A stretch of DNA of 26,892 nt. Source: a virus. Taxonomy: Duplodnaviria > Heunggongvirae > Uroviricota > Caudoviricetes. The notes beneath the pieces are model-generated. The model did not search any database. It saw only the letters and a list, made by a program, of their open reading frames with translations, and had not been told where the DNA came from. Location of the stretch: the IMG/VR virus record IMGVR_UViG_2534682096_000007. One strand, 5' to 3'. Made by a program: the position numbers and the translations under genes. Shown here in pieces: positions 474 to 25,328 of this stretch (its first letter is position 1; each line of letters opens with the position of its first letter).

Positions 474-595
474 AACTTTCCTACTATATTAGGAATAGTC
501 AATAACAGAAAAATTGTCAGTGATGAAGCCAGAAAGGCAATTTAGTCCGTGCACTACAAAGTTTATGTGTTAATGAATTAGTCAAGGGGGAGGAA

Positions 596-1555
596 ATGAT
601 AAAAAAACCTGTGATTGGGATCAGCGGTTGTTTGGGCGGTTCTGCTGTTCGTTTTGATGGTGGTCACAAAAGAGATGACTTTTTAATGGACAAATTAGTG
701 GAATGGGTAACATTCAGACCAGTATGTCCGGAAATGGCTATAGGGCTGCCAGTTCCGCGTCCTGCTCTACGACTTGTGCGCTCGAAGCAAGGAAATATAC
801 GGATGTGTTTCAGCCACGACCAGAATGAGGATGTGACAGAGAGAATGACAGAGTTTAGTCGTTCTTATATGGACAAATTAAAGGATGTATCGGGGTTTGT
901 GGTTTGTGCTAAATCTCCCAGCTGTGGCATGGAGCGCGTGCGTGTCTATGATGAAAATGGTAATCGAGGTCGTAAAGATGGAGTGGGACTATTTACGAGC
1001 ACTTTGATGGAAAAGTTTTCCTGGCTACCGGTTGAAGAGGATGGGCGATTACATGATCCAGTGCTTCGTGAGAATTTTATTGAAAGAGTTTTTGCTTTGC
1101 ATGAGCTCAATCACCTTTACAAGGAGAAATTATCAAGAAGAGAGTTATTAGCTTTTCATAGTCGTTATAAGCTTCAGTTGTTGGCGCATAGCCAGGCAGG
1201 CTATAAAGATATGGGACCATTTGTGGCTGCAATACACGAGTGGGCGGACCTTGAATCATACTTTGAGGTGTATCGTGATAATCTGATGGCGATTCTCAGA
1301 AAACCAGCATCACGTAAAAATCACACGAATGTGCTGATGCATATACAGGGGTATTTTAGTAATTACTTAAGTACACGCCAGCGTAAAGAGTTGAGCGAGG
1401 TTATACTTAACTATCGCTTTGGCACATTGCCTCTTCTTGCGCCGTTGACTCTGCTGAAGCATTATCTGGGTGAGTATCCTAATGATTACTTGCTTACACA
1501 GAATTACTTCGATCCCTATCCGGAAGAACTGGCTCTAAGACTGATGGTGAATTAA
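596..1555 (+). CDS. RudS-like protein: DUF523 (TudS-type Fe-S desulfidase) fused to DUF1722 (YbgA-like); putative tRNA 4-thiouridine desulfidase
   Basis: 319 aa; strong RBS GGGGGAGGAA ends 3 nt before ATG 596. N-terminal half carries the Cys pattern of DUF523/TudS (GISGCLGG..., FRPVCPEM, VVCAKSPSCG). C-terminal half carries YbgA/DUF1722-like motifs (HSRYKLQLLAHSQ, NHTNVLMHIQGYF, LPLLAPLTLLKHYLGEYPNDYL). AT-rich compared with the structural genes. Domain calls are from memory of the families. Confidence 0.6.
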   Translation: MIKKPVIGISGCLGGSAVRFDGGHKRDDFLMDKLVEWVTFRPVCPEMAIGLPVPRPALRLVRSKQGNIRMCFSHDQNEDVTERMTEFSRSYMDKLKDVSGFVVCAKSPSCGMERVRVYDENGNRGRKDGVGLFTSTLMEKFSWLPVEEDGRLHDPVLRENFIERVFALHELNHLYKEKLSRRELLAFHSRYKLQLLAHSQAGYKDMGPFVAAIHEWADLESYFEVYRDNLMAILRKPASRKNHTNVLMHIQGYFSNYLSTRQRKELSEVILNYRFGTLPLLAPLTLLKHYLGEYPNDYLLTQNYFDPYPEELALRLMVN

Positions 1556-1961
1556 CTGTATGCGATATCATCTGAAAGTGATGAGTTCCTGTATGCAGGA
1601 TATTTACAATCGTAAAAACTACGCTATGATGCTCATAGTGTCAGTTTTTATAAAAATCCTGTTCACGCTAAAGAAAACATTGAGATGCAATTTAATGTTG
1701 GTAAATATACCAGCCCCAAAAGATTTTATTCAATCTGTTTTTATATGAAGATATTTCAAGTGAATATAAAGAGCATATAATATTATTATTGCACGCAGCT
1801 ATTATAATATAACAGATTAGTTTAATGATTTGTTTTTTGTGAGTTAAATACATGGTTTTATAGTTGTGATGCAATGAGATTTTCCTTATTGTTGAACTGG
1901 CGAATGTTGATTTTCCACCTATACTTACCTGGTGTAACCCCAATGATATCAGGTGGATAAT

Positions 1962-2675
1962 ATGTCATACATATGTTCTATCATTTTGGTGTTGAACTCG
2001 TTTGGTGTCCGAATTGGTAAAGAAGATATTTTGTTTAAAAAAGGAAATGCTGTCCTCATTGAATACAATTTAAAAGATCTTTTTTCGTCAAATACAGATC
2101 ATCTAATGATCGTAGATGTTGAGGAGAAAACAGTTAATGATTTCTTTAAAAACTACACACTCTCACCTTTTTCTGTAAGAAGGTTTTATCCGTCATACTT
2201 GATAGTAGAATGTGAAGATTTTTCATTGTTAAAGAACTTGGTTGCATGCTTGAATTGTGATAGCAAAACCGTGGATGTAGTTAGAAATCAAATATCACTT
2301 GCATGTCTTGCTGTCTTATCTTCAGAGAAAATAGTGCAAAGTTTTTTGTTCGGAAGTCTTAATAGCTTAGGTTGTAAAGTTAAGGCTATTATTCACTCGG
2401 ATATCTCAGCGTCATGGAGACTTTGTGATATATCTTCAAGATTATATATGAGCGAGAGTTTGTTAAAAAGAAAATTAAAAGACGAAGGATTATCGTTTAG
2501 TAAATTAATTCTTGAAGAACGAATGATGATGGCGCAAAGATTATTAATCTACAGTAACCATACTGTCGGCAAGGTGGCGGGAATATGCGGGTATGACAAT
2601 GCATCATATTTTGTAAGTGTTTTTAGAGGATATTTTTGTGTGCCTCCGCACCAATATTTATCAAGATTTTCTTAG
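1962..2675 (+). CDS. AraC/XylS-family transcriptional regulator (Rns/PerA/ToxT-like, prophage-borne)
   Basis: C-terminal about 100 aa is a classic AraC-type double HTH (SWRLCDISSRLYMSESLLKRKLKDEGLSFSKLILEERMMMAQRLL...GKVAGICGYDNASYFVSVFRGYFCVPPHQY). N-terminal about 130 aa is an uncharacterised sensor/dimerisation domain. Very AT-rich gene. Start set at ATG 1962 (RBS AGGTGGA 1951-1957) rather than the GTG at 1953 used by the ORF track. Confidence 0.8.
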   Translation: MSYICSIILVLNSFGVRIGKEDILFKKGNAVLIEYNLKDLFSSNTDHLMIVDVEEKTVNDFFKNYTLSPFSVRRFYPSYLIVECEDFSLLKNLVACLNCDSKTVDVVRNQISLACLAVLSSEKIVQSFLFGSLNSLGCKVKAIIHSDISASWRLCDISSRLYMSESLLKRKLKDEGLSFSKLILEERMMMAQRLLIYSNHTVGKVAGICGYDNASYFVSVFRGYFCVPPHQYLSRFS

Positions 2676-2743
2676 AAGATATGATGTGATGGCATTTTAT
2701 AAAGTTATTTTTTGAAGTGTAAGATTATACGATATTTTTAGCT

Positions 2744-2777
2744 ACGCCAGAATAATTGCTGGCGTTTTTCTTTTTGA
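2744..2777 (+). terminator. rho-independent terminator after the AraC-family gene
   Basis: Perfect 7-bp stem ACGCCAG (2744-2750) / CTGGCGT (2759-2765), 8-nt loop, followed by TTTTTCTTTTT. Confidence 0.65.
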
Positions 2778-2865
2778 ATAGATGTTCGGGCCTTACGCTA
2801 ATGTAACTTCTTTCCTTCTTCGAACCAAACCGTGTACACCATCCGTTATCTGCGGAGGTGAGGCT

Positions 2866-3081
2866 ATGAAATCCATGGATAAGTTAACAACGGGCATCGC
2901 CTACAGCACCTCTGCAGGCAGTGCTGGCTACTGGTTTTTACAGTTGCTCGATAAAGTCACGCCCTCACAGTGGGCGGCAATAGGTGTATTGGGTAGTCTG
3001 GTATTTGGCATGCTGACGTATCTGACAAATCTTTATTTCAAGATTAAAGAAGACAGGCGTAAGGCTGCGAGAGGAGAGTAA
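2866..3081 (+). CDS. class II holin / pinholin of the phage 21 S21 (EssQ/EssD) type, with dual-start motif
   Basis: 71 aa; RBS GGAGGTGAGG 2854-2863. Starts MKSMDK, i.e. Met1-Lys-x-Met4 dual start as in antiholin/holin pairs. Two hydrophobic segments ([19 protein letters not shown]; [21 protein letters not shown]) and charged C-terminus [13 protein letters not shown]. The ORF-track extension back to 2782 is rejected. Confidence 0.9.
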
Positions 3082-3085
3082 TCCA

Positions 3086-3393
3086 ATGACTCAAGACTAT
3101 GAACTGGTTGTGAAAGGAGTCCGTAATTTTGAGAATAAAGTTACGGTAACTGTAGCCTTACAGGACAAAGAACGCTTTGACGGTGAAATTTTTGGCCTGG
3201 ATGTCGCCATGGACCGTGTTGAAGGAGCTGCGCTGGAGTTTTATGAGGCAGCAGCCAGAATGAGCGTCCGGCAAGTCTTCCTGGAAGTAGCAGAAAAATT
3301 GTCAGAAAAAGTTGAGTCTTATCTGCAGCATCAGTACTCCTTTAAGATTGAAAATCCTGCCAATAAGCACGAGCGTCCTCATCATAAATATCT

Positions 3394-3397
<4 letters not shown>
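3086..3397 (+). CDS. ydfR: DUF1327 family protein (YdfR-like) within the lysis cassette
   Basis: 103 aa, placed between holin and endolysin exactly as ydfR sits between essQ and rrrQ in the K-12 Qin prophage. Its stop overlaps the endolysin start (ATGA at 3394-3397). Function unknown. Family call is by size and synteny from memory. Confidence 0.6.
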
Positions 3398-4421
<1,024 letters not shown>

Positions 4422-4785
4422 ATTAATATTAAATCGGATTATTTTTAGCGCTGAATGTGAAATTTAAATAAAAAGGACTCTTCCATGAGTCAAAATCCTT
4501 GAAATCTTAAGGGTAAGATAAAAGGTCATTAGACAGAATGACACGTTTTATTAATAAATAAAGCTATTGTTTCATTCGTGTGTTTTTCTTTACAAAAGTA
4601 ATCCTTGCTATGGTTGGTTAATCATGCGTTAATGGTGTTCTGGTTTGTTACAAAATTATCTGAAGCAGTCATTGTTATAATTTTATTATTTGTACCTCTT
4701 GAGATTTCCTTGTTGGTTTTTCTCTCTGATATTTTTTTTTCGGACCATTCTGCCCAAGGGCTAACTTCTTCAAAAGGTAATAATG
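4422..4785 (+). promoter_or_regulatory. long AT-rich leader and promoter region of the csp gene (cspA-family style 5' UTR)
   Basis: About 360 nt of AT-rich non-coding DNA directly upstream of a CspA-family gene; cspA-family genes are known to have long structured 5' UTRs. Promoter and cold-box elements are not mapped, so exact boundaries are unknown. Confidence 0.35.
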
Positions 4786-4998
4786 ATGTCTAACAAAATG
4801 ACTGGTTTAGTGAAATGGTTTAACCCTGAAAAAGGTTTTGGTTTCATCACGCCGAAAGATGGTAGCAAAGATGTGTTTGTGCATTTCTCAGCTATTCAGA
4901 GCAACGATTTCAAAACGTTAACTGAGAATCAGGAAGTCGAATTTGGTATTGAGAACGGACCTAAAGGCCCTGCAGCTGTTCATGTAGTGGCACTTTGA
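4786..4998 (+). CDS. CspA-family cold-shock protein (CspB/CspI-like, prophage-borne)
   Basis: 70 aa [42 protein letters not shown]... with RNP1-like KGFGFI and RNP2-like VFVHF motifs. AAGG 4774-4777 upstream. An extra in-frame ATG lies at 4783. Confidence 0.92.
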
Positions 4999-5202
4999 GG
5001 TAGAAAATATTACAAACCATATTCACTTTAGATGCCCGTGTTGCCATGGTTCTCAGTATAGAACATCATCTTTTGATGTTTCTGACAGAAATCCTTTCGG
5101 GGCAAAATGTATCTTTTGTAAATCAATGATGATTACATTTGATAATATTTCACAATACTTAAATGTTAGCCATCTGTCGTTAGATTTAAGAAAGTGAAAA
5201 TG

Positions 5203-5226
5203 AAGGCTCCTTCGGGAGCTTTTTTG
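5203..5226 (+). terminator. rho-independent terminator
   Basis: Stem GGCTCC (5205-5210) / GGAGC (5215-5219) with loop TTCG, followed by TTTTTT (5220-5225). Lies about 200 nt downstream of the csp stop. Confidence 0.55.
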
Positions 5227-5269
5227 CTTAGTGTCTAGTCGATGGATACTCACATATTACGGTAACATT

Positions 5270-5500
5270 ATGAAAAAAATAATAGTTTTTTTTAACTCTG
5301 AACCAGCAATGGTAGTGCCAGTGATGACCGGAGTTAACACCATCATGCGTGAATATCCAAATGGCGAAACAACACACCTCACTGTAATGGCTGCAGGGTT
5401 TCCATCTCTGACCGGAGATCATAAAGTCATTTATGTAGCAGCGGATCGACATGTAACTTCAGAAGAAATTCTGGAAGCAGCAATGAGACTCTTGAATTGA
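5270..5500 (+). CDS. small hypothetical protein, YmcE/YnfN-like by position (between csp and gns genes)
   Basis: 76 aa from ATG 5270 (MKKIIVFFNSEPAMVVPVMTGVNT...). Occupies the slot between a cold-shock gene and a gns gene, as in cspG-ymcE-gnsA and cspI-ynfN-gnsB of K-12. Weak RBS; family assignment by synteny only. Confidence 0.45.
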   Translation: MKKIIVFFNSEPAMVVPVMTGVNTIMREYPNGETTHLTVMAAGFPSLTGDHKVIYVAADRHVTSEEILEAAMRLLN

Positions 5501-5672
5501 TTTGATTCTAATGCATTGATAATAAATGATAATCATCTTTATCTGTTTGTGTGAAATTTAGACCGTCATATGTTGATTATTGCGATGTTTCATCTTATCT
5601 TTTATACGTTTGCTCCATATAATTGACACTACTGTGTACCAGGACAGTCATAACAGACTAAAAGAGGAAATG

Positions 5673-5846
5673 ATGAACATTGAAGAGTTAAAAACAAAAA
5701 CAGAAGCAGATATTTCTGAATATATAACAAAAAAAATCATTGAGCTTAAGAAAAAGACCGGGAAAGAAGTTACCTGTATCCAGTTTACTGCACGGGAAAA
5801 AATGACTGGTCTTGAAAGCTATGATATCAAGATTGATTTAATCTAG
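5673..5846 (+). CDS. gnsB: GnsA/GnsB-family protein
   Basis: 57 aa MNIEELKTKTEADISEYITKKIIELKKKTGKEVTCIQFTAREKMTGLESYDIKIDLI, matching the Gns family in length and sequence as recalled. RBS AAGAGGAAA 5661-5669. The ORF-track start at 5580 is rejected. Whether it is the A or B paralogue is uncertain. Confidence 0.8.
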   Translation: MNIEELKTKTEADISEYITKKIIELKKKTGKEVTCIQFTAREKMTGLESYDIKIDLI

Positions 5847-5908
5847 CATGTTTATAGTATTAGCATCAATTTCTCATCAGATGCTATTCAACAATACAAA
5901 TTACCCAT

Positions 5909-5934
5909 AAACCTCGTTTTTACGGGGTTTTGTT
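5909..5934 (+). terminator. possible rho-independent terminator after gns
   Basis: Stem ACCTCG (5911-5916) / CGGGGT (5923-5928, one G-U pair), loop TTTTTA, then TTTGTT. Weak U-tract. Confidence 0.35.
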
Positions 5935-6141
5935 ATATTTAAACATTACCGAATAGATATAAATCTCGATTGTCGATGGTATTGGTTGTGTGACAATACC
6001 TAGTCTTTCCGGTATGCCTGAAGAGAATACAAACGACAGATTATGTAAGGGAAACGCGCTGAAACTTTCACTCTTTCATGCTGAGTGATTTGACGTTATA
6101 TTTTTAGCCGCAAGTGAAGAGCAAACGAATGGAGCGACAAA

Positions 6142-6348
6142 ATGCATAAAGATCAATACACTGATGCCCCCTCCCAGGAGCAGGTTCGTGTAAAAACTAT
6201 GCTTAATAGCACCATTTCGATGGGTTACCCGGATGTTGTAATTGCATGTATAGAACATCAAGTATCTCTGGAAGCATTCAGGGCAATTGAGGCCGCGTTA
6301 GTAAAGCACGATAAGAATACGAAGGATTATTCCCTGGTGGTTGACTGA
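6142..6348 (+). CDS. hypothetical 68-aa protein
   Basis: GGAG at 6130-6133 sits 8 nt upstream of ATG 6142. Single ORF in an otherwise non-coding stretch between gns and the terminase genes. No family recognised. Confidence 0.4.
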
Positions 6349-6710
6349 TCACCATAACTGCTAACCATTCTGACCATTTCACAAGTGACAGAGTCAATAT
6401 CGTATTCTGTCACTGTAAGGCTAATACAGTACTGCAATTCAACTACAGCAATGCCTCGTATTTAGGTGAATTTACAATATCGTCCAGTTCGGATGCCGGC
6501 TGCATTTCTGAAGATAAGGCATTTCGGTTCGCGTATTTTCCCCTCATGCTCGTCAGTCCTGCGCGTAGTAAGAAACAGGACACTCACACTAATTTGTGTG
6601 GGCATGCTGTGATGTCCTTCTGAATTATCCCCATGCCATTATGTAACGCTCTGTTTCAGATGCTCGTCACGGTTGTCAGGCTGTCGGGTCCTCCCAGTGG
6701 GGGTCCCTGC

Positions 6711-6797
6711 CACGGGGCGGGAGCGTCGCGGAAAAAGGCTAGTTTTTGAAATTTTATTCGTCATCACCACTACTGTAATTGATTGATATTACAGTGG
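6711..6797 (+). other. putative cos site (cosN-like cleavage region plus downstream terminase-binding region) with a flanking inverted repeat
   Basis: CACGGGGCGGGAGCGTCGCGG (about 6711-6731) resembles the lambda cohesive-end region (ACGGGGCGGCGACCTCGCGGG as I recall it). Downstream TTCGTCATCAC resembles lambda TTCGTCATAAC. An 8-bp inverted repeat ACTGTAAT-N8-ATTACAGT lies at about 6766-6796. Located about 100-190 nt upstream of terS, the normal position of cos for a GpA-type terminase. Confidence 0.45.
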
Positions 6798-6900
6798 TTT
6801 TATTTTTATGGTGTCGATTCTGATTGTTTTTTGTTCATCACTAACACCGTTTGCCTAAAGTTGTTCGCAAGATGCATGTTTAAAACATTCTGGAGCGGGT

Positions 6901-7395
6901 ATGGATCGAGAGTTAAAAAATCTGACGCTGAATATCAGTCAACTGGCGGCATTGTCAGGTGTACATCGCCAGACTGCTGCGGCAAGGCTGCAAAATCTAC
7001 CCGTTGCAGGGGGGCATGAAAGCAACCTCAAGCTTTATCGGGTGGTTGATATTGTGTCGGCATTTCTGGCATTACCACCGCCGGTTGCAGAAGGCGAAAT
7101 GGACGCGCATGAGCGCAAAGCCTGGTATCAGTCTGAACGTGAGCGTCTTAAGTTCGAACAGGAAACGGCACAACTCATTCCGGCCAGTGATGTCAGACGG
7201 GAGTTTGCCATCTGGGCAAAAGCGGTCGTGCAGGTGCTGGAGACATTACCGGATATTCTTGAACGTGACTGCGGTCTGCAGCCTGCCGCTGTGAGCCGTG
7301 TTCAGTCCATTATTGATGATCTGCGCGATCAGATAGCCCTGCGGGTGACTGAAGCAGGTGCGGATGATGAGGAGGAATTACAGCAGGAGGAGTAA
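6901..7395 (+). CDS. terminase small subunit (DNA-packaging protein, HTH-containing)
   Basis: 164 aa. Lies immediately upstream of the large terminase, with its stop overlapping the TerL start (TAATG at 7393-7397). N-terminal HTH-like segment NISQLAALSGVHRQTAAARL and acidic C-terminus. GGAG 6892-6895 upstream. Confidence 0.7.
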   Translation: MDRELKNLTLNISQLAALSGVHRQTAAARLQNLPVAGGHESNLKLYRVVDIVSAFLALPPPVAEGEMDAHERKAWYQSERERLKFEQETAQLIPASDVRREFAIWAKAVVQVLETLPDILERDCGLQPAAVSRVQSIIDDLRDQIALRVTEAGADDEEELQQEE

Positions 7396-9497
7396 TGCTG
7401 AATCAGGAAACCGCAAAGGCAGCACGAACCGATTCAGGTTATATCCTTCGCGCACCGAGTCGAATGCGGGTTGCTGATGCCGTTGCTCAGTATATGCGGG
7501 TGCCTATGGGGGCAGGGAACTCAGTCCCGTGGGATCCGCTGGTGGCACCGTATGTTATTGAGCCTATGAACTGCCTGGCCTCGCGTGAATACGACGCAGT
7601 GATATTTGTTGGCCCGGCACGAACCGGCAAGACTATCGGCCTGATTGACGGCTGGGTGATTTACAACGTGATTTGCGATCCTGCTGATATGCTGATCATT
7701 CAGATGACGGAGGAAAAAGCCCGCGAACACTCCAAAAAACGACTCGCCAGAACGTTTCGCGTCAGCCCGGAAGTGGTCAGTCGCCTGAGTCCGAACAAAA
7801 ATGACAACAACGTTTATGACAGAACATTCCTTGCTGGCAACTACCTGAAAATCGGCTGGCCGTCAGTCAATATCATGTCTTCATCAGATTATAAATGCGT
7901 GGCGCTGACGGATTATGACCGTTTTCCGGAAGATATTGATGGTGAGGGGGATGCCTTCTCTCTTGCCTCAAAACGTACCACCACATTTATGTCCAGTGGT
8001 ATGACGCTGGTGGAGAGTTCCCCCGGCAGGGATGTGAAGGATGTGAAATGGCGACGGACTTCACCGCATGAGGCTCCACCAACCACGGGGATCCTGTCGC
8101 TCTATAACCGTGGCGATCGCCGTCGCTGGTACTGGCCCTGTCCACACTGTGGTGAGTATTTTCAGCCCTGCGGCGATGTGGTTGCTGGTTTCCGTGATAT
8201 TGCCGATCCTGTGCTGGCAAGTGAGGCGGCTTATATTCAGTGTCCTTCCTGTTCAGGACGGATTTTGCCTGAACAAAAACGCGAGCTGAACGGACGTGGG
8301 GTCTGGTTACGGGATGGTGAATCCATCAATGCAGATGGCAGTCGTTATGGTGATCCCCGGCGTTCACGTATTGCGTCATTCTGGATGGAGGGTCCGGCAG
8401 CTGCTTATCAGACACTCTCGCAACTCGTTTACAAACTGCTTACTGCAGAACAGGAATACGAGACAACCGGAAGTGAAGAGACACTCAAGACGGTTATCAA
8501 TACCGACTGGGGATTACCTTATCTTCCCCGCGCCAGCATGGAGCAACGAAAAAGTGAATTGCTTGAGCAGCGGGCAGAGCCAGTTCCTTCCCGCAGTGTG
8601 CCGGATGGCGTTAATTTCCTTGTGGCGACAGTGGATGTGCAGGCGGGACGTCATCGCCGTTTTGTGGTTCAGGTAACGGGCTATGGCAGCCGTGGCGAAC
8701 GCTGGATTATTGATCGTTACAACATCACGCAGTCATTGCGCGGTGACAGCGACGGGGAGAGCCAGCGAATTGATCCGGCCAGCTATCCGGAAGACTGGGA
8801 TGTCCTGCTGACGGATGTTTTTCATAAAAGCTGGCCGCTGGCCTCCGATCCTTCTCAACAAATGCGACTGATGGCAATGGCGGTGGACTCCGGCGGTGAA
8901 GACGGGGTCACTGATAATGCCTATAAATTCTGGCGTCGTTGCCGTCGTGATGGCCTTGGTAAACGTATTTACCTGTTTAAGGGTGACAGCATCCGGCGCG
9001 CAAAACTGATCAGCCGTACATTCCCTGATAACACCGGACGAACGGGCCGCCGGGCGCAGGCCGCAGGTGATGTGCCGCTCTGGCTTCTTCAGACGGATGC
9101 CCTGAAAGACCGGGTGAATAACGCGTTATGGCGTGACTCGCCAGGTCCCGGCTATGTGCATTTCCCTGACTGGCTGGGGAGCTGGTTTTACGACGAACTG
9201 ACGTATGAAGAGCGGAGCAGTGACGGGAAATGGAGTAAGCCGGGTCGCGGTGCCAACGAAGCTTTTGACCTGATGGTGTATGCCGAGGCTCTGGTCATTC
9301 TGCATGGATACGAAAAGATCCGCTGGCCGGATGCACCGGAGTGGGCGAGCCGGGAAACCTGGCTGGAGTGTGTCCCGGACAGTACCGAACCGTCACCCAC
9401 ACCGGAACCGGTATCCACGCCTGTTAAAAAACAAAAACGGAAGAAAACAGTAACTGACGATGTTAACCCCTGGCTGACTTCCGGAGGATGGTTATGA
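7395..9497 (+). CDS. terminase large subunit, lambda GpA family
   Basis: 700 aa. Walker A P-loop VGPARTGKT near the N-terminus; size and architecture of GpA-type terminases; followed by gpW-like and portal genes. RBS AGGAGGAG 7385-7391. Confidence 0.9.
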   Translation: MLNQETAKAARTDSGYILRAPSRMRVADAVAQYMRVPMGAGNSVPWDPLVAPYVIEPMNCLASREYDAVIFVGPARTGKTIGLIDGWVIYNVICDPADMLIIQMTEEKAREHSKKRLARTFRVSPEVVSRLSPNKNDNNVYDRTFLAGNYLKIGWPSVNIMSSSDYKCVALTDYDRFPEDIDGEGDAFSLASKRTTTFMSSGMTLVESSPGRDVKDVKWRRTSPHEAPPTTGILSLYNRGDRRRWYWPCPHCGEYFQPCGDVVAGFRDIADPVLASEAAYIQCPSCSGRILPEQKRELNGRGVWLRDGESINADGSRYGDPRRSRIASFWMEGPAAAYQTLSQLVYKLLTAEQEYETTGSEETLKTVINTDWGLPYLPRASMEQRKSELLEQRAEPVPSRSVPDGVNFLVATVDVQAGRHRRFVVQVTGYGSRGERWIIDRYNITQSLRGDSDGESQRIDPASYPEDWDVLLTDVFHKSWPLASDPSQQMRLMAMAVDSGGEDGVTDNAYKFWRRCRRDGLGKRIYLFKGDSIRRAKLISRTFPDNTGRTGRRAQAAGDVPLWLLQTDALKDRVNNALWRDSPGPGYVHFPDWLGSWFYDELTYEERSSDGKWSKPGRGANEAFDLMVYAEALVILHGYEKIRWPDAPEWASRETWLECVPDSTEPSPTPEPVSTPVKKQKRKKTVTDDVNPWLTSGGWL

Positions 9498-9706
9498 ACC
9501 AGAATGATATCGAAGCCATGATTCAGCGTTATACGGAAGCTGAAATGGCGGTGCTGGACGGAAAATCCGTCACCTTTAATGGTCAGCAGATGACCATGGA
9601 AAACTTATCTGAGATCCGGCAGGGACGGCAGGAGTGGGAGCGCCGCCTTGCGGCTCTGATTACACGACGACGGGGGCATCCCGGGTACCGGCTGGCGAGG
9701 TTCTGA
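9494..9706 (+). CDS. head-tail joining protein, gpW-like
   Basis: About 70 aa ending ...ITRRRGHPGYRLARF, resembling the lambda gpW C-terminus (...RRRGPAGFYV as I recall it). GGAGG 9483-9487 precedes ATG 9494; an alternative ATG lies at 9488. Stop overlaps the portal start. Confidence 0.75.
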   Translation: MNQNDIEAMIQRYTEAEMAVLDGKSVTFNGQQMTMENLSEIRQGRQEWERRLAALITRRRGHPGYRLARF

Positions 9707-11214
9707 TGGCAATTCTTGATGATGTGATTGGCGTTTTTTCACCAGGATGGAAAGCGGCAAGGCTGCGTTCCCGTGCGGTGATCCAGGCTTATGAGGCCGT
9801 AAAAACGACACGGACACACAAAGCCCGGCGGGAAAACCGAACTGCCGACCAGTTAAGCCAGTACGGGGCCGTGTCGTTACGTGAGCAGGCCCGTTACCTT
9901 GATAACAACCACGATCTGGTTATTGGTGTATTTGACAAGCTGGAAGAACGGGTGGTGGGGAAAAACGGGATTATTGTCGAGCCACATCCGGTATTACGCA
10001 ATGGGGCCATTGCCCGTGATCTGGCAGCGGAGATACGCACCCGATGGAGTGAATGGTCTGTCAGTCCGGAAGTCACCGGGCAGTTTACCCGTCCGATGCT
10101 GGAACGTCTGATGCTGCGTACCTGGCTGCGCGATGGTGAGGTGTTTGCCCAGATGGTTTCCGGGCGCATAAACAGCCTGACGCCTTCTGCCGGTGTTCAT
10201 TTCTGGCTGGAGGCGCTCGAGCCGGACTTTATTCCCATGACCAGTGATGAGAGCAACAGGCTGAATCAGGGCGTGTTTGTTGATGACTGGGGGCGTCCCG
10301 AAAAATATCTGGTGTATAAAAGCCGTCCCGTATCCGGGCGGCAGATGGAAACCAAAGAAGTGGATGCAGAGCGAATGCTGCATCTTAAATTTGTTCGCCG
10401 TCTGCACCAGATGCGCGGGACGTCTTTGTTGTCCGGTGTGCTGATCCGCCTCAGTGCCCTGAAAGAGTATGAAGATTCTGAGCTGACTGCAGCAAGGATC
10501 GCCGCTGCTCTGGGGATGTACATCCGGAAAGGCGACGGGCAGAGCTATGAACCGGATGGTAATGACAGCAAGGAGAATGAACGCGAGCTTACCATTCAGC
10601 CAGGCATTATTTACGACGATCTGAAACCCGGCGAAGAAATCGGAATGGTGAAGTCGGATCGTCCCAATCCTAACCTTGAAACTTTTCGTAATGGTCAGTT
10701 GCGTGCCGTGGCGGCGGGCAGTCGTCTGAGTTTTTCCAGTACGGCACGCAACTATAACGGCACTTACAGCGCCCAGCGTCAGGAGCTGGTTGAATCCACT
10801 GATGGCTACCTGATCCTGCAGGACTGGTTTATTGGTGCCGTCACCCGCCCGATGTATCGTGCCTGGCTGAAACAGGCTGTGGCATCCGGTGTTATCAGGC
10901 TACCCCGCGATCTTGATCGTTCTTCACTGTATACCGCGGTGTATTCCGGACCGGTGATGCCGTGGATTGACCCTGTTAAGGAGGCTGAGGCCTGGAAAAT
11001 TCAGATTCGTGGTGGAGCGGCGACAGAATCAGACTGGGTACGTGCAGGTGGTCGTAATCCGGATGATGTCAAACGTCGGCGCAAGGCCGAAATTGATGAA
11101 AACCGCAAGCTGGATCTGGTATTTGATACCGATCCGGCCAGTGATAAAGGAGGCAGCAGTGCCGCAACGAAACGACAGGAGCCGCAGCACACCGACGACC
11201 AGTCCGAAGAATAA
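9706..11214 (+). CDS. portal protein (lambda gpB-like)
   Basis: 502 aa starting at ATG 9706, which overlaps the gpW stop (TGATG). Size and position are typical for a portal between gpW and the head protease. The upstream extension to 9634 in the ORF track is rejected. Confidence 0.85.
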   Translation: MAILDDVIGVFSPGWKAARLRSRAVIQAYEAVKTTRTHKARRENRTADQLSQYGAVSLREQARYLDNNHDLVIGVFDKLEERVVGKNGIIVEPHPVLRNGAIARDLAAEIRTRWSEWSVSPEVTGQFTRPMLERLMLRTWLRDGEVFAQMVSGRINSLTPSAGVHFWLEALEPDFIPMTSDESNRLNQGVFVDDWGRPEKYLVYKSRPVSGRQMETKEVDAERMLHLKFVRRLHQMRGTSLLSGVLIRLSALKEYEDSELTAARIAAALGMYIRKGDGQSYEPDGNDSKENERELTIQPGIIYDDLKPGEEIGMVKSDRPNPNLETFRNGQLRAVAAGSRLSFSSTARNYNGTYSAQRQELVESTDGYLILQDWFIGAVTRPMYRAWLKQAVASGVIRLPRDLDRSSLYTAVYSGPVMPWIDPVKEAEAWKIQIRGGAATESDWVRAGGRNPDDVKRRRKAEIDENRKLDLVFDTDPASDKGGSSAATKRQEPQHTDDQSEE

Positions 11215-11227
11215 TTCCTGGTTCAGG

Positions 11228-13186
11228 ATGCAGGCAGGTCACCAGAGTGACGCGGATATTTATATTTATGACGAGATTGGTTTCTGGGGTGTTACAGCGA
11301 AGCAGTTTATCAGTGATCTGAATGCACTGGGCGATATCACCCACATTAATCTCCATATTAATTCACCGGGTGGCGATGTCTTTGAAGGCATCGCCATTTT
11401 TAATGCACTGAAAACACATGGTGCGTCCATTACCGTTTATGTCGACGGTGTGGCGGCGTCAATGGCGTCGGTCATTGCGATGGTGGGAAACCCGGTCATT
11501 ATGCCGGAAAACTCCTTCATGATGATTCATAAACCATTTGGCTTTACGGGCGGTGATGCGGAGGACATGCGCACCTATGCCGACCTGCTCGATAAAGTTG
11601 AGGCGGTTCTGTTACCCGCTTATGCACAGAAAACCGGGAAAACCACCGATGAAATTGCTGCCATGCTGGCGGATGAGACCTGGATGTCCGGTGCCGAATG
11701 TCTGGCACAGGGATTTGCTGATCAGGTGACACCAGCCGTTAAGGCAATGGCATGTATTCAGTCAAAACGTACAGAGGAATTTAAAAAGATGCCGGAATCC
11801 ATTCGAAACATGATTACTCCGCCACGCAACAGTGCTCCACGCGTACAGGATGATGAACCTGCAGCCTCCCGGACGCCAGTGCAGGCAGCAGCACCCGTGG
11901 TGGATGAAAACAGTATCCGTGCGCAGGTACTGGCAGAGCAAAAAGCGCGTGTAAACGGTATTAATGATCTGTTTGCCATGTTTGGCGGGCGTTATCAGAC
12001 GCTGCAGGCCCAGTGTCTTGCCGATCCTGAATGTTCGCTGGAGCAGGCCCGTGAAAAGCTGTTGAACGAGATGGGGCGCGAGTCCACGCCATCCAATAAA
12101 AATACCCCGGCTCATATTTATGCCGGTAACGGTAATTTTGTGGGGGACGGGATTCGCCAGGCGCTGATGGCGCGTGCCGGATTTGAAAAAACCGAACGTG
12201 ATAATGTCTACAACGGGATGACCCTGCGTGAATATGCCCGTATGTCACTAACTGAACGGGGTATTGGGGTTTCCGGTTATAACCCGATGCAGATGGTCGG
12301 TGCGGCGTTCACACACAGTACGTCTGACTTCGGTAATATTCTGCTGGATGTTGCGAACAAAGCCATTCTGCAGGGCTGGGAAGATGCCCCTGAAACCTAT
12401 GAACAGTGGACGCGGAAAGGTCAGTTGTCTGATTTTAAAATTGCCCATCGTGTGGGTATGGGGGGCTTCAGTGCTCTACGTCAGGTGCGTGAAGGGGCGG
12501 AATATAAATACGTCACCACCGGAGATAAACAGGCCACTATTGCACTGGCGACCTATGGCGAGCTGTTCAGTATCACCCGTCAGGCCATTATCAATGATGA
12601 TCTGAATATGCTGACCGATGTCCCGATGAAACTGGGCCGTGCGGCGAAATCCACTATTGCCGATCTGGTTTATGCCATTCTGACGTCTAACCCGAAAATC
12701 TCCACAGATAATGTAAGTCTGTTCGATAAAGCGAAACATGCAAACGTACTGGAGAGCGCTGCAATGGACGTGGCATCGCTGGATAAAGCCCGCCAGTTGA
12801 TGCGCGTTCAGAAAGAGGGGGAGCGTCATCTGAATATTCGTCCTGCGTTCGTACTGGTACCGACGGCGATGGAGTCTGTTGCTAACCAGGTCATTCGCTC
12901 CTCAAGTGTCAAGGGGGCTGACATTAACGCCGGTATTATTAACCCGGTGAAAGATTTTGCGACCGTTATTGCAGAGCCTCGTCTTGATGATAACAGCCAG
13001 ACCACCTTCTACCTGGCTGCGTCAAAAGGCTCCGATACGATTGAAGTGGCTTATCTCAACGGTGTGGATACGCCATATATTGATCAGATGGAGGGCTTCA
13101 GTGTGGATGGCGTGACAACGAAAGTGCGTATTGACGCCGGTGTCGCGCCAGTTGATCACCGCGGTCTGGTGAAATGTACGGCGTAA
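11228..13186 (+). CDS. fused prohead protease (ClpP-like, S14/S49) and major capsid protein
   Basis: 652 aa from ATG 11228, just after the portal stop. N-terminal about 190 aa is ClpP-like with catalytic-serine motif GVAASMASV. Central helical linker. C-terminal about 330 aa is major-capsid-like. The track start at 10967 overlaps the portal gene and is rejected. Confidence 0.8.
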   Translation: MQAGHQSDADIYIYDEIGFWGVTAKQFISDLNALGDITHINLHINSPGGDVFEGIAIFNALKTHGASITVYVDGVAASMASVIAMVGNPVIMPENSFMMIHKPFGFTGGDAEDMRTYADLLDKVEAVLLPAYAQKTGKTTDEIAAMLADETWMSGAECLAQGFADQVTPAVKAMACIQSKRTEEFKKMPESIRNMITPPRNSAPRVQDDEPAASRTPVQAAAPVVDENSIRAQVLAEQKARVNGINDLFAMFGGRYQTLQAQCLADPECSLEQAREKLLNEMGRESTPSNKNTPAHIYAGNGNFVGDGIRQALMARAGFEKTERDNVYNGMTLREYARMSLTERGIGVSGYNPMQMVGAAFTHSTSDFGNILLDVANKAILQGWEDAPETYEQWTRKGQLSDFKIAHRVGMGGFSALRQVREGAEYKYVTTGDKQATIALATYGELFSITRQAIINDDLNMLTDVPMKLGRAAKSTIADLVYAILTSNPKISTDNVSLFDKAKHANVLESAAMDVASLDKARQLMRVQKEGERHLNIRPAFVLVPTAMESVANQVIRSSSVKGADINAGIINPVKDFATVIAEPRLDDNSQTTFYLAASKGSDTIEVAYLNGVDTPYIDQMEGFSVDGVTTKVRIDAGVAPVDHRGLVKCTA

Positions 13187-13272
13187 ACGTCGCAGACAAC
13201 AACTCTGATGGCCCGTAAGGGCTTTTTTTGTACCTGAAATCAGCCCCTGAACGGGGCTGTGCGGAGACAGTT

Positions 13273-13596
13273 ATGGCAAAGAATTTTGTAGAAGAAGGAA
13301 AAACGGTGGCGATTGTTGCCAGTGCAGCCATCAGCAGCGGAGATCTGGTGCAGGTGGGCGATGTTTTTGCGGTGGCGCTGACCGATATTCCACAGGGTGA
13401 AACAGGCGACGGCATGACCGAAGGTGTGTTTATGCTGCCTAAGCTGAAAACGGATGACATGAAAACGGGTAAGAAGGTTTATCTGAAGTCCGGAAAAGTT
13501 CAGCTGACTAACAGCGGCTCTGATCCGCTGGTCGGGGTTGTCTGGGCAGATGCCGGAACCAGTGCAGAAGAAGTGCCGGTAAAACTCAATGTCTGA
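13273..13596 (+). CDS. DUF2190-like small phage head protein (putative decoration/cement protein)
   Basis: 107 aa from ATG 13273 (RBS GGAGACAG upstream), directly after the capsid gene. Gly/Val-rich, predicted beta-rich. Family assignment is tentative. Confidence 0.5.
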   Translation: MAKNFVEEGKTVAIVASAAISSGDLVQVGDVFAVALTDIPQGETGDGMTEGVFMLPKLKTDDMKTGKKVYLKSGKVQLTNSGSDPLVGVVWADAGTSAEEVPVKLNV

Positions 13597-13864
13597 TCCC
13601 TTTTCCCGGCTGGCAGCGCGTATGGATGCTATCACGGTTAGAAAGATGGGAAAGACAGCCTCGATTAATGATGTCGATATGACTGTGATCCCGGGAGAAA
13701 CACTGGCAGAGCTGAATGCTCTGTCCGGACCTGCGGTCTCTCTGGTGGTGTTTTCTTCGGGATACCGCCCACGGCGCGGGGATCGCGTTGTTTATGACGG
13801 ACAACAATGGACGGTCACACGGCATGAACGTTTTAACGGTAAGCCAATGATCTTTATTGAGTAA
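13589..13864 (+). CDS. small head-tail connector / tail attachment protein (in the lambda FII position)
   Basis: 91 aa. Start overlaps the preceding stop (translational coupling). Sits between head genes and tail gene Z. Assignment is positional. Confidence 0.4.
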   Translation: MSDPFSRLAARMDAITVRKMGKTASINDVDMTVIPGETLAELNALSGPAVSLVVFSSGYRPRRGDRVVYDGQQWTVTRHERFNGKPMIFIE

Positions 13865-13875
13865 AGAGGTGTGGG

Positions 13876-14454
13876 ATGAAGGGGCTTGAGAATGCCATCC
13901 GTAATCTGAACAGCCTTGATACCCGTATGGTGCCACAGGCCAGCGCATGGGCGATAAACCGTGTGGCACAGAAAGCGGTCTCGGTCGCCACCCGGCAGGT
14001 TGCCGGGAATACCGTTGCGGGAGATAACCAGGTGAAAGGGATCCCCCTGAAACTGGTACGTCAGCGTGTCCGGGTGTTTAAAGCCAGTCCGTCAGGAAAA
14101 ATGACGGCCAGGATCCGCGTTAACCGGGGCAATCTGCCCGCTATTAAGCTGGGGACAGCCCGGGTCAGACTGGCCCGGCGTGGTGGAAAACAGCAGTACC
14201 GTGGCAGTGTGCTGAAGGTGGGTAAATATCTTTTCCGGGATGCGTTTATTCAGCAACTGGCGAATGGTCGCTGGCATGTGATGCGGCGTATTGATGGCAA
14301 AAATCGTTACCCCATTGATGTGGTGAAAGTCCCGCTGTCCGGACCGCTGACACAGGCATTTGAAGATGCCCGCGACCGCATTATTGCTGCGGAAATGCCG
14401 AAACAGCTGGGGTATGCACTGAAACAACAACTGAGGTTATGGCTGACCCGATGA
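13876..14454 (+). CDS. Z: minor tail protein Z (tail terminator/completion)
   Basis: 192 aa, the same length as lambda gpZ, and first gene of a lambda-order tail cluster. RBS AAAGAGG upstream. Confidence 0.8.
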   Translation: MKGLENAIRNLNSLDTRMVPQASAWAINRVAQKAVSVATRQVAGNTVAGDNQVKGIPLKLVRQRVRVFKASPSGKMTARIRVNRGNLPAIKLGTARVRLARRGGKQQYRGSVLKVGKYLFRDAFIQQLANGRWHVMRRIDGKNRYPIDVVKVPLSGPLTQAFEDARDRIIAAEMPKQLGYALKQQLRLWLTR

Positions 14455-14852
14455 ACCGACATACACAAATCCGCCAGGCCGTACTGGCACGCCTTCGGGA
14501 ACAGTGTGGAGACAGCGCCACGTTTTTTGACGGGCTTCCGGCATTTATTGATGCGCAGGAACTGCCTGCCGTGGCGGTGTGGCTGAGTGATGCTCAGTAC
14601 ACCGGAAAAATGACGGATGAAGATGACTGGCAGGCTGTTCTGCATATTGCTGTCTTCATCCGGGCACAGGCACCGGATTCAGAGCTGGATATGTGGATGG
14701 AGAGCACCATTTTCCCGGCCCTGAATGATATACCGGCACTTTCCGGACTCATCGACACCCTGATCCCTCTCGGTTTTAACTATCAACGTGATAATGAGAT
14801 GGCCACCTGGGCGATGGCGGAAATCACGTACCAGATCACGTACACGAATTAA
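14451..14852 (+). CDS. U: minor tail protein U (tail terminator)
   Basis: 133 aa from ATG 14451; contains ...ATFFDG.P...PAVAV.L....YTG......W.A.LHI.VF..AQ.PDSELD.WMES.I.P...DIPALS.LI... closely matching lambda gpU as recalled. An upstream in-frame ATG at 14439 is an alternative start. Confidence 0.88.
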   Translation: MNRHTQIRQAVLARLREQCGDSATFFDGLPAFIDAQELPAVAVWLSDAQYTGKMTDEDDWQAVLHIAVFIRAQAPDSELDMWMESTIFPALNDIPALSGLIDTLIPLGFNYQRDNEMATWAMAEITYQITYTN

Positions 14853-14863
14853 AGGAGGTGGCA

Positions 14864-15607
14864 ATGACCACACCAAATCCACTGGCAAAAACGAAAGGTG
14901 CGGGAACGACGTTCTGGATGTACACCGGCAAGGGCGATGCGTTTGCGAACCCTTTATCGGACACTGACTGGCTGCGTCTTGCGATGGTGAAGGATCTGCA
15001 ACCTGGCGAAATGACCGCTGATGCAGAAGATGACACTTATCTCGATGATGAAGATGCAGACTGGAAAACGACAACCCAGGGGCAGAAATCCGTCGGTGAT
15101 ACTTCGGCGACGCTGGCCTGGCGTCCGGGTGACAGCGGGCAGAAAAAACTGGTTCAGTTGTTCGACTCCGGTGAAGTCTGCGCGTTTCGTATCAAATATC
15201 CCAACGGCACTGTTGATGTTTTCCGTGGCTGGCTGAGCTCACTGGGTAAAACCATTGCCTCAAAAGACGTGATGACCCGCACAGTGAAAATCAGCGGTGT
15301 GGGGCGTCCGTATCTGGCAGAGGAAGGCACTGAAACAGTGAGCGTTACCGGGCTGACGGTGGCACCGGCATCTGCCAGTGTAAAAGTGGGAGCAACCACC
15401 ACGCTGACCTTTACAGTAAAACCTGACGGAGCCAGTGACAAAGCGATCAGTGTGCATTCGACAGATCCACAGACTGCCACGGTGACCCTGAACGGGCTTG
15501 TGGCCACGGTGAAAGGCGTGAAGCAGGGCAGTGTCAGCATTGTGGGCATGACTTCTGACGGCGATTTTGTGGCAGTGGCTGCGGTGGCTGTCAGCGCCGC
15601 AGGTTAA
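14864..15607 (+). CDS. V: major tail protein V (with C-terminal Ig-like domain)
   Basis: 247 aa from ATG 14864 (RBS AAGGAGG 14852-14858). ...KGAGTT.W.Y.G.GD..ANPLSD.DW.RLA.VKDL.PGE.TA...DD.YLDDEDADW... closely matches lambda gpV as recalled. Confidence 0.92.
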   Translation: MTTPNPLAKTKGAGTTFWMYTGKGDAFANPLSDTDWLRLAMVKDLQPGEMTADAEDDTYLDDEDADWKTTTQGQKSVGDTSATLAWRPGDSGQKKLVQLFDSGEVCAFRIKYPNGTVDVFRGWLSSLGKTIASKDVMTRTVKISGVGRPYLAEEGTETVSVTGLTVAPASASVKVGATTTLTFTVKPDGASDKAISVHSTDPQTATVTLNGLVATVKGVKQGSVSIVGMTSDGDFVAVAAVAVSAAG

Positions 15608-15627
15608 CAGGACGATACTCATCATTT

Positions 15628-15651
15628 GCCCCGGTTATCCGGGGCTTTTTT
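15628..15651 (+). terminator. intrinsic-terminator-like hairpin between V and G
   Basis: Perfect 7-bp stem GCCCCGG (15628-15634) / CCGGGGC (15639-15645), loop TTAT, then TTTTTT. Confidence 0.6.
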
Positions 15652-15667
15652 GCAGGTGGAGAACATG

Positions 15668-16054
15668 ATGTTTCTGAAACAGGGCACGTTTAATTATGAA
15701 AAGCAGTCCGTGGTGCTCAGTGAGCTGTCCGGGCTGCAGAGAATTGAATATCTGGCGTTTGTTCAGCAGCGAACGGCAAAGTTTGATGCCGAAGAGGGAG
15801 AACTGCCGGAGGCTGAACGACAGATTGCTTTTCTGCGGATGGGGATGGATATCAATGCCTGGCTGGTTTCCCGCTCACTGTGGAATGCGGAACAGTCTCA
15901 GGATGTTGAGACGCTTTGCGCATCCGTTATTACAACATGGTCGTATGATGCCCTGGGAGCGGGGGCGGAGATGGTTCTGTCGCTGAGCGGTATGGGAGTC
16001 ATTGAGAATGCCGGGGATTTGGAGCATGAGGTGCTGACGCCGGAAAAGTCCTGA
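15668..16054 (+). CDS. G: tail assembly chaperone G
   Basis: 128 aa from ATG 15668 (MFLKQGTFNYEK...SVVLSELSGLQRIEYLAF...), matching the lambda gpG N-terminus MFLKTESFEHNGVTVTLSELSALQRIEHLA as recalled. RBS GGTGGAG 15655-15661. The track start at 15626 lies inside the terminator hairpin and is rejected. Confidence 0.88.
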   Translation: MFLKQGTFNYEKQSVVLSELSGLQRIEYLAFVQQRTAKFDAEEGELPEAERQIAFLRMGMDINAWLVSRSLWNAEQSQDVETLCASVITTWSYDALGAGAEMVLSLSGMGVIENAGDLEHEVLTPEKS

Positions 16055-16392
16055 CGCGGGAAATGCAGTTTGTCATGCGGCTTGCCCGGGAGTTCCGGCG
16101 GGCAGACTGGCGGCGGATGCTGTCGGAAATGTCGGCCACTGAGCTTGGTGAGTGGGGCGATTATTTCCGGATGCAGAGCTTCAGTGATGTGTGGATGGAT
16201 GCGCAGTTTGCCTCGCTGAAGGCATTGATCGTGAGAATGGTGTCCGGTAGCAGTGATGCTGCGGTGGCTGATTTCAGCCTTTTACCGGAAGAGAACGGGA
16301 TACCGGAGCGAACGGACGAAGAACTGATGCATCTTGGGGAAGGTATTTCCGGAGGTGTGCGTTATGGACCAGATAGCCAACTTGGTCATTGA
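15668..16392 (+). CDS. T: tail assembly chaperone GT, predicted product of a programmed -1 ribosomal frameshift from G into the T frame
   Basis: The T reading frame (stop at 16390-16392) is the -1 frame relative to G and is open from 16030, overlapping the last 8 codons of G. A slippery-like heptamer G_GAA_AAG lies at 16042-16048 (lambda uses G_GGA_AAG). There is no credible independent start/RBS for T; ATG 16063 is internal. Confidence 0.6.
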
Positions 16393-19300: not shown

Positions 19301-19429
19301 GATGGCACGAACGGGCAGATAGGTCCGGCTGCCCTGAAGGTGGTTTATGACCTTGGGAAAAAAGCGGCAGCGGACTTTATGCAACAGCAGGCCCGTGATG
19401 GTGGTCGGTTAAGTGGAGCATATCGGTAA
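16364..19429 (+). CDS. H: tail tape measure protein (gpH-like)
   Basis: 1021 aa from ATG 16364 (RBS GGAGG 16351-16355). Long, Ala/Gln/Arg-rich coiled-coil protein in the tape-measure position between G/T and M. Confidence 0.9.
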   Translation: MDQIANLVIDLGIDAAEFKNEIPRIKNLLNGAASDAERSSARMQRFMERQTQAARQTMQAASSAATAASVHAQTVEKSAQAHERMAREVEQTRQRMEALSQKMREEQAQAMALAEAQDKAAAAFYRQIDSVKQASAGLQELQRIQQQIRQARNSGGIGQQDYLALISEVTAKTRVLTQAEEEATRQKVAFIRQLKEQATRQNLSSSELLRAKAAQLGVSSAAEVYIRKMEQAGKATHSLGLKSAAARQEIGVLIGELARGNLGALRGSGITLANRAGWIDTLMSPKGMMLGGVIGGIAASVYGLGKAWYDGQKEGEEFNRQLSLTGHYAGVTAGQLWTLSRAISGNGITQHAAAGALAQVVGSGAFRGNDIGMVARAAAQMERSVGQSVSDTINQFKRLKDDPVNAAKALDNELHFLTATQLEQIRVLGDQGRSSDAARIAMSALAEETGRRTADIDNNLNALGSTLKYLSDLWSRFWDAAMNIGREDSLDEQIAALQEKVSRAKRLPWTASSSQVEYDQQRLNDLQEKKRQKDLQDAKEQAERNYQEQQKRRNAENAALNRMNETEAARHQREIARINSMQYADQAVRDAAIQRENERYEKALASGKKKTRETRNDEATRLLLQYSQQQAQVEGQIAAARQSAGIATEKMTEAHKQLLALQQRISDLDGKKLTADEKSVLARKDELIQALTLLDVKQQELQKQTALNDLKKKTIQLTSQLAEEERAQRQQHDLDIATVGMGDQQRQRYQVQLSLRQKYQQQLEQLRRDSEQKGTYNTDDYRKAEQALTESLNRQLNENRRYWQQLEVVQGNWKNGVLRAFQDFTVDADNTAGTAEQVFSSAFSNMGNGLATFVTTGKLNFKSFTSSVLSDMAKILAQATMMKSIKGIGSVLGFDLSSLSLNANGGIYQSADLSRYSGTVVNRPTFFAFAKGAGVMGEAGPEAILPLRRGADGKLGVVADIGGSGMAMFAPQYNIEINNDGTNGQIGPAALKVVYDLGKKAAADFMQQQARDGGRLSGAYR

Positions 19430-19758: not shown

Positions 19759-19767
19759 GAGGCTCTG

Positions 19768-20466: not shown

Positions 20467-20471
20467 ATCCC

Positions 20472-21784: not shown

Positions 21785-21844
21785 TGAAAAACGTTTTATG
21801 TGAAACCGCCTCCGGGCGGTTTTGTCGTTTATGGAGCGTGAGGA

Positions 21845-25328
<3,484 letters not shown>

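Follow-up and report, generated by a model that had tools for sequence, protein, structure and literature searches.

A lambdoid prophage gene for a probable RudS-type tRNA 4-thiouridine desulfidase in a conserved late-operon cassette

Does a prophage encode an enzyme that would strip a modification from tRNA, and if so, how is such a gene housed and what might it do for phage or host? The question is raised by a 26,892-nucleotide stretch of DNA from a virus of the class Caudoviricetes (IMG/VR record IMGVR_UViG_2534682096_000007; the whole stretch is called the window below). A first-pass annotation, made from the letters alone, had described the open reading frame at 596-1555, here rudS, as a prophage-borne RudS-like fusion of a DUF523/TudS domain with a DUF1722 domain, a putative desulfidase of 4-thiouridine (s4U) in tRNA. 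As judged from its sequence, the gene is a real and intact prophage copy of a RudS-type tRNA s4U desulfidase. The best explanation of the locus, and in our view a highly probable one, is that this RudS-type enzyme is carried as a moron by a lambdoid phage, in a cassette with a lipocalin gene and a gene for an AraC-like regulator. The coding sequence and its parts are as follows.

596-1555, + strand: rudS coding sequence, 319 amino acids plus stop, ATG start; identical to RefSeq WP_000592549.1 ('YbgA family protein')
584-593, + strand: purine-rich Shine-Dalgarno-like stretch AAGGGGGAGG, directly 5' of the rudS ATG, read from the sequence
614-1042, + strand: TudS/DUF523 catalytic domain, residues 7-149 (Pfam PF04463 and TudS alignment)
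1169-1522, + strand: DUF1722 domain, residues 192-309 (Pfam PF08349)

The start codon, the length of the product and the purine-rich stretch in front of it bear out the proposed reading frame, and the product shows no amino acid difference from the copy in a collinear reference prophage (locus L001, described below). A profile check returned both of the proposed domains at full length, with E-values of about 1e-40 each. PF04463 (2-thiouracil desulfurase/DUF523) matched residues 7-149 over profile positions 1-141 of 141 (E 5.8e-40; score 137 bits, cutoff 34.7), and PF08349 (DUF1722) matched residues 192-309 over positions 1-117 of 117 (E 9.4e-40; score 136 bits, cutoff 22.5). Both matches are far above chance. 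The cysteine pattern that had been read in the N-terminal half was also present, as GISGC(12)LGG, VC(44)PEM and VVC(104)AKSPSC(110)G. Alignment to the sequence of the TudS structure 6Z92 placed Cys12, Cys44 and Cys110 on the TudS ligands C10, C43 and C104, but Cys104 of the third motif aligned with no TudS ligand. In the same alignment E46, S107 and S109 fall on E45, S101 and S103 of TudS.

The residues E46, S107, S109 and R55, found in the motifs CPE, KSPSC and PVPRP, are the counterparts of E51, S111, S113 and R60 in RudS_KT of Pseudomonas putida (PP_0741), where mutagenesis showed these four residues and the three cysteines to be essential (PMC11417400). Residues were mapped from RudS_KT by fixed offsets. 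We counted conservation in the 114 full-length (319-residue) proteins among the 120 relatives listed. Cys12, Cys44 and Cys110 are invariant in all 114, as are E46, R55 and S107, and S109 is kept in 112. The tRNA-contacting residues R24, G27, R64, E152, R155, S243 and R244 of RudS_KT would correspond, by offset mapping, to R19, G22, R59, E148, R151, S239 and R240 of the window protein, all of which are invariant in the alignment of relatives. Of the other RudS_KT contacts, N26 falls on D21 and T246 on N242, and N202/N203 could not be placed. An AlphaFold2 model built from 30 sequences (mean predicted local distance difference test score (pLDDT) 74.8, predicted template modelling score 0.75) has an alpha/beta N-terminal half and an all-helical C-terminal half. 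The only significant PDB matches of this model in a Foldseek search were to TudS (five chains, E 1.5e-4 to 1.7e-3, target TM score 0.62-0.66), and TudS was the sole significant PDB match by sequence as well (25-26% identity over about 155 residues).

The enzyme is already known, its phage ortholog included. RudS_vir of Escherichia phage 1H12 (H3V29_gp66, NC_049947) was characterised by Jamontas et al. (2024, NAR 52:10543; PMC11417400); overexpression of its synthetic gene in E. coli cut tRNA s4U. All six RudS orthologs tested in that study lowered tRNA s4U, by 4.7- to 26-fold, and stand-alone TudS and E. coli YbgA left it unreduced (PMC11417400). The window protein is 91.8% identical to RudS_vir (293/319), with 26 substitutions and none of them at catalytic residues, and 97.5% identical to the protein of phage IdasGreatGrand. 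The ligand positions given in the paper for RudS_vir and RudS_ST, the Salmonella ortholog, are likewise Cys12/44/110 (PMC11417400). In architecture, ligand cysteines and catalytic residues, the fusion matches RudS in the way first suggested. Novelty is low because RudS_vir has already been tested experimentally; the gene call is correct but adds little. Our additions are contextual and modest: a conserved cassette, a likely chromosomal origin with loss of a MerR-type regulator, a prevalence of about 20% in E. coli, purifying selection, and an insertion that is specific to the window.

Comparison with the other known proteins places the window copy further. It shares with RudS_KT and RudS_ST (Salmonella ORF319/STM1389) the TudS-DUF1722 fusion, the three cysteines, the glutamate, the two serines and the arginine, and the Salmonella diarizonae ortholog in Salmonella pathogenicity island 2 (SPI-2) is 69% identical to it. 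RudS_KT and RudS_ST are chromosomal and lie under MerR/LitR-type regulators in light-response or SPI-2 contexts, whereas the phage copy has an AraC-like neighbour and no MerR gene nearby. TudS (DUF523Vcz; PDB 6Z92/6Z93/6Z96) has the same catalytic fold, [4Fe-4S] ligands and catalytic residues, but it consists of one domain, has free 4-thiouracil and 4-thio-UMP as its substrates, and leaves tRNA s4U undiminished in vivo. Assignment to stand-alone TudS, which has one domain of about 150-170 residues, is ruled out by the 319 residues and the fused DUF1722 domain. The C-terminal 155 residues match NF007549, the model of E. coli YbgA (b0707, a stand-alone DUF1722 protein encoded upstream of the photolyase gene phr), with an E-value of 4.7e-56. 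Unlike the window protein, YbgA is without a TudS domain and has no effect on s4U, and the RudS type found between kdpA and a photolyase gene is a separate lineage (57-61% identical). We rejected the YbgA assignment of RefSeq: the match to NF007549 scores 189.1 bits against a cutoff of 237, covers residues 161-315 only, and leaves an extra catalytic domain. With a score under that cutoff and an additional TudS domain, the protein is described only imprecisely as a 'YbgA family protein'. In PHROGs, the family (phrog_3275) is entered as of 'unknown function'.

Homology, together with the experiments on the 92%-identical ortholog, points to [4Fe-4S]-dependent hydrolytic desulfuration of s4U at tRNA position 8 (s4U8), with DUF1722 as the predicted tRNA-binding part. 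In the TudS domain, Cys12, Cys44 and Cys110 would ligate a [4Fe-4S] cluster whose free fourth iron would bind the sulfur of s4U8. Glu46, placed by Arg55, Ser107 and Ser109, would activate a water molecule that displaces the sulfur and converts s4U to U. The DUF1722 domain, identified as the tRNA anticodon-arm binding module of RudS (PMC11417400), would grip the tRNA by this arm.

The DNA around the gene agrees with the claim that it is prophage-borne. At its rspB/ydfJ (Qin) site, E. coli WP8-S17-ESBL-05 carries a lambdoid prophage with which the window is collinear; positions 474-6748 of the window match it at 99.9% identity and positions 7494-22763 at 96-97%. The annotation of this reference prophage lists Q, holin, lysozyme, spanin, terminase, portal, a capsid-protease fusion, tail genes and J. 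Where the locus is uninterrupted, the gene order is Q antiterminator, lipocalin (- strand), rudS (+), AraC-like regulator (+) and holin; in the window itself Q lies past an insertion sequence (IS), outside the view. The elements of this region are listed below, those outside the window by their coordinates in the reference prophage.

L001 19349-19382: strong terminator-like hairpin in a lambda tR'-like position, some 100 nt downstream of the Q stop codon
L001 19406-19930, outside the window, divergent to rudS: Blc-type lipocalin gene (PF08212), just upstream of the IS junction
1-473, + strand: right end of an IS3-family insertion sequence (Pfam rve, rve_3, rve_2; OrfB C-terminus at 3-431)
474-595, + strand: remnant of the original lipocalin/rudS intergenic region, 122 bp; homology to uninterrupted prophages begins at 474
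1962-2675, + strand: AraC-family (YdeO-like) regulator gene, third gene of the cassette (Pfam HTH_18, HTH_AraC)
2744-2775, + strand: intrinsic-terminator-like hairpin with T-run, found by scan, at the same site in the reference prophage and just 5' of the holin gene
2866-3081, + strand: holin gene, essD-type (Pfam Phage_holin_2_1 and reference annotation), the downstream edge of the Q-to-lysis slot

The full order from Q to holin was found in 72 of 80 IMG/VR viral loci, the rest being mostly cut by contig ends, and the AraC-like gene lies downstream of rudS in at least 72 of the 80. The same order recurs in phages 1H12 and IdasGreatGrand and in three prophages with different chromosomal positions and lysis modules. 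With 1H12 the window thus shares both the protein and the cassette; it differs in its lysis module (holin, DUF1327 gene, rrrQ-type lysozyme gene) and in the IS3-family element 122 bp upstream of rudS. The AraC-like regulator is 76% identical to 1H12 gp67 and belongs to phrog_1450; it scores 110 bits with the NCBIfam YdeO model, far below the cutoff. The G+C content is 43% in rudS, about 32% in the regulator gene and 50-60% in the structural genes. The Q-to-lysis interval of lambdoid late operons is a classic cargo slot, which also holds stx in Shiga toxin (Stx) phages. By its position, its deviant G+C content and its recurrence across phage backbones, rudS is a lambdoid-phage moron in this slot. 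Like the stx-type morons it lies after Q and a terminator and before the holin gene, in the sense direction of the late operon; the cargo here differs in being a putative tRNA de-modification enzyme with a lipocalin and a regulator instead of a toxin, and Q-dependent expression is, for rudS, deduced from the setting. Two strong terminator-like hairpins bracket the cassette, and late transcription has to pass the two of them before it arrives at the lysis genes. The simplest assumption is that rudS would be expressed late and in a Q-dependent manner: after induction, Q-modified RNA polymerase would read through into rudS, and the enzyme would lower the s4U content of host tRNA.

In the window, the cassette has been struck by an IS element, which was inserted in the lipocalin/rudS intergenic region 122 bp 5' of the rudS ATG and reads towards rudS. 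The uninterrupted gap between the two genes is 196 bp in 77 of 79 IMG/VR loci. The IS3-family segment is 99.8-100% identical to copies elsewhere. The exact junction of IS and rudS region was not found in 5426 complete E. coli genomes; the four matches in this set with at least 80% coverage were other IS insertions, at 91-93% identity. The element may alter rudS expression in this window, whether by silencing, insulating or driving the gene.

The gene itself is common. In the same 5426 genomes, rudS was present in 1136, and 1064 of these carriers (about 94%) hold a copy that is at least 80% complete. The copies are nearly all chromosomal, with a median of one per genome, and fall into three identity bands: 407 genomes at 99% or more, 619 at 95-99% and 110 at 90-95%. 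Both PMC11417400 and a 2026 review state that E. coli is without RudS. The statement holds for laboratory strains and the core chromosome; about a fifth of sequenced isolates contradict it. For the window allele, the ratio of nonsynonymous to synonymous substitution rates (dN/dS) was 0.14 against the 1H12-type allele, these two representing the main phage allele classes, and 0.24 against a 98% allele, indicating purifying selection on rudS within phages. Comparison with Citrobacter copies was precluded by saturation of synonymous sites.

Several observations weigh against a tRNA desulfidase expressed late in this prophage, and some of them lend themselves to other explanations. Twenty-six substitutions separate the window allele from the experimentally tested RudS_vir. 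The structural model is of moderate quality, with pLDDT under 50 in the ligand loops 13-27 and 107-109; poor prediction of the loops with Cys12 and Ser107-Ser109 is expected because the model was built without the cluster. We infer late-operon expression from position. The promoter scan upstream of rudS gave no sigma-70 promoter above shuffled background, and the IS insertion may uncouple rudS from upstream transcription. A link of the enzyme to UVA and to the phage life cycle, attractive for a UV-inducible prophage, is purely inferential. With regard to the substrate, tRNA desulfidation by RudS_vir was lower despite relatively high soluble protein, and on free 4-thiouracil RudS_vir gave the shortest lag of the RudS proteins in a uracil auxotroph (PMC11417400); its preference may be broader than tRNA and include some activity on small thionucleobases. 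These two results would also fit a phage RudS that works mainly on free thionucleobases and thionucleotides (4-thiouracil, 4-thio-UMP) released by tRNA turnover, in salvage or detoxification and not as a tRNA eraser, and the catalytic domain is homologous to TudS, a 4-thio-UMP recycler. However, RudS_vir still significantly lowered tRNA s4U where stand-alone TudS did not, and no RudS matched TudS in supporting growth (PMC11417400). The tRNA-binding DUF1722 domain has, moreover, been kept full-length under purifying selection, and we regard a mainly salvage-directed enzyme as improbable.

Whether the gene serves any purpose may also be asked, as the Q-to-lysis slot is a known dumping ground for cargo, the cassette of the window was hit by an IS element and the J gene of the prophage is broken. 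A silent passenger without function for phage or host, kept by a recombination-tolerant slot, is nevertheless very unlikely given the dN/dS of 0.14 across phage alleles, the intact set of catalytic residues, the full-length state of rudS in about 94% of carrier genomes and its retention in the viable phages 1H12, the related 'Lambda_' records and IdasGreatGrand. The first-pass annotation had also raised an anti-defence role, in which altered tRNA s4U would shield host tRNAs from a tRNA-targeting immune nuclease. General precedent for phages manipulating tRNA pools is in its favour, as is the altered stability of tRNA-Tyr and tRNA-Ser upon s4U loss (PMC11417400). The idea gained no support from PADLOC, which found no match for the rudS product, the AraC-like protein or the lipocalin, and a tRNA scan found no tRNA genes in the window, which leaves rudS without a link to phage tRNA genes at this locus. 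We know of no tRNA-cleaving defence that reads tRNA position 8. Chromosomal relatives lie in photolyase- or MerR-linked light-response contexts and not in defence islands, and a shield against immune nucleases is the least credible of these alternatives, with hardly any probability left to it.

A desulfidase acting on tRNA s4U thus remains the preferred reading, and it raises the question of what its role in the phage might be. The caution that its function in a prophage is not established still holds, a search having found no paper, among those in the searchable library, on the role of a phage-borne rudS copy. RudS_KT in E. coli is described as giving fewer s4U8-C13 photocrosslinks, less uncharged tRNA and ppGpp (guanosine tetraphosphate), and a shorter growth delay after UVA (PMC11417400). 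By analogy, with less s4U in an induced cell, near-UV (UVA) light would form fewer of the s4U8-C13 crosslinks by which translation is stalled and ppGpp set off, and basal rudS expression in lysogens, if there is any, would make the host equally tolerant of UVA. We put forward only tentatively, and as less likely to be right than wrong, that prophage rudS acts as a gene of the late operon or of lysogenic conversion, through which roughly one in five E. coli strains, and the phages induced from them, escape the near-UV checkpoint set by the tRNA s4U8-C13 crosslink. If this were true, sunlight would induce the prophage through the SOS response while s4U crosslinks stall translation and raise ppGpp, and RudS would erase the sensor; phage late proteins would still be made, and lysogens would regrow faster. 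RudS would in that case be an epitranscriptomic 'eraser' that a phage encodes and that matters ecologically, and textbooks could no longer say that E. coli is without RudS. Given the 1136 carriers among 5426 genomes, E. coli strains may differ, according to their prophages, in growth delay under near-UV, in the level of s4U and in s4U-dependent tRNA stability. The fixed place in the late operon and the purifying selection make rudS a concrete, testable case of a virus with a tRNA-modification eraser.

Where did the phage gene come from? A scan of species-representative genomes for relatives returned Enterobacterales only, with two RudS lineages, at 57-61% and 66-76% identity to the phage protein. 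In the one locus of the former that we examined (L081), rudS lies between kdpA and the photolyase gene, a site at which E. coli K-12 has only the DUF1722 remnant ybgA; Citrobacter werkmanii carries both lineages (L013 and L081). The 66-76% lineage is nearest to the phage gene and occurs in contexts with a lipocalin gene, a MerR regulator gene or a cluster with a cyclopropane fatty acid (CFA) synthase gene. In Citrobacter braakii, rudS is the last gene of a cluster encoding SnoaL, a short-chain dehydrogenase/reductase (SDR), amine-oxidase, DUF1365, CFA-synthase, DUF2878 and DUF3833 proteins. In Salmonella, rudS stands in the SPI-2 region between ssrB and ttrRS, behind a gene for an MlrA-like MerR regulator, an arrangement that fits ORF242/ORF319 of PMC11417400. 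Enterobacter, Leclercia, Buttiauxella, Kosakonia, Lelliottia and Raoultella have an opposite-strand lipocalin gene upstream of rudS whose product is 73-80% identical to the phage lipocalin, and in Enterobacter mori, the one such locus viewed in detail, an MlrA-like MerR gene stands between the two. Kluyvera has lipocalin and rudS genes directly adjacent and divergent, as in the phage. With Kluyvera included, the chromosomal lipocalin neighbours are 71-80% identical to the phage lipocalin. This recurrent neighbourhood suggests a functional link between the two genes; the alignment of the phage and Kluyvera lipocalin/rudS intergenic regions held no conserved regulatory motif.

The AraC-like gene was not found in 80 chromosomal rudS loci of other Enterobacterales, with one exception (L047). 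The exception is a 3.2-kb contig of a 'Candidatus Nanosynbacter' metagenome-assembled genome; its rudS is that of the E. coli phages (92% identity) and its AraC-like gene is 85% identical to theirs. The contig resembles a phage fragment and is almost certainly contamination from binning, not Saccharibacteria DNA. In Salmonella Derby, a further copy next to ttcA is accompanied by an integrase remnant, which suggests what is left of a prophage. On these comparisons, the simplest account is that the lipocalin-rudS block was taken up by a lambdoid phage from a chromosome of the enterobacteria, shed its MerR-type control and now stands beside an unrelated gene for an AraC-like regulator.

Further along the window, other parts of the prophage are of note. 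The tail-tip gene J (21845-25328) is broken by an in-frame TGA at 23492-23494 and by a frame change between 24421 and 24447, and the prophage may be defective, or these may be assembly errors. The receptor-binding end of J is mosaic, because its last approximately 294 residues are just 64% identical to the reference J. Positions 6749-7493 are the sole stretch within 474-21312 that has no DNA match to the reference prophage, and a 164-residue open reading frame at 6901-7395 stands where the reference has a DUF1441 protein; the module beside the large terminase gene has apparently been swapped. A second AT-rich cargo region, at 4400-6750 (G+C content 34-39%), follows the spanin gene and holds a cold-shock gene (cspI-type, 4783-4998) and small genes named ymcF, ynfN and gnsB in the reference. 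A DUF1327 (ydfR-type) gene at 3086-3397 sits between the holin and lysozyme genes and is absent from the rrrD-type lysis cassettes that bear the same rudS cassette.

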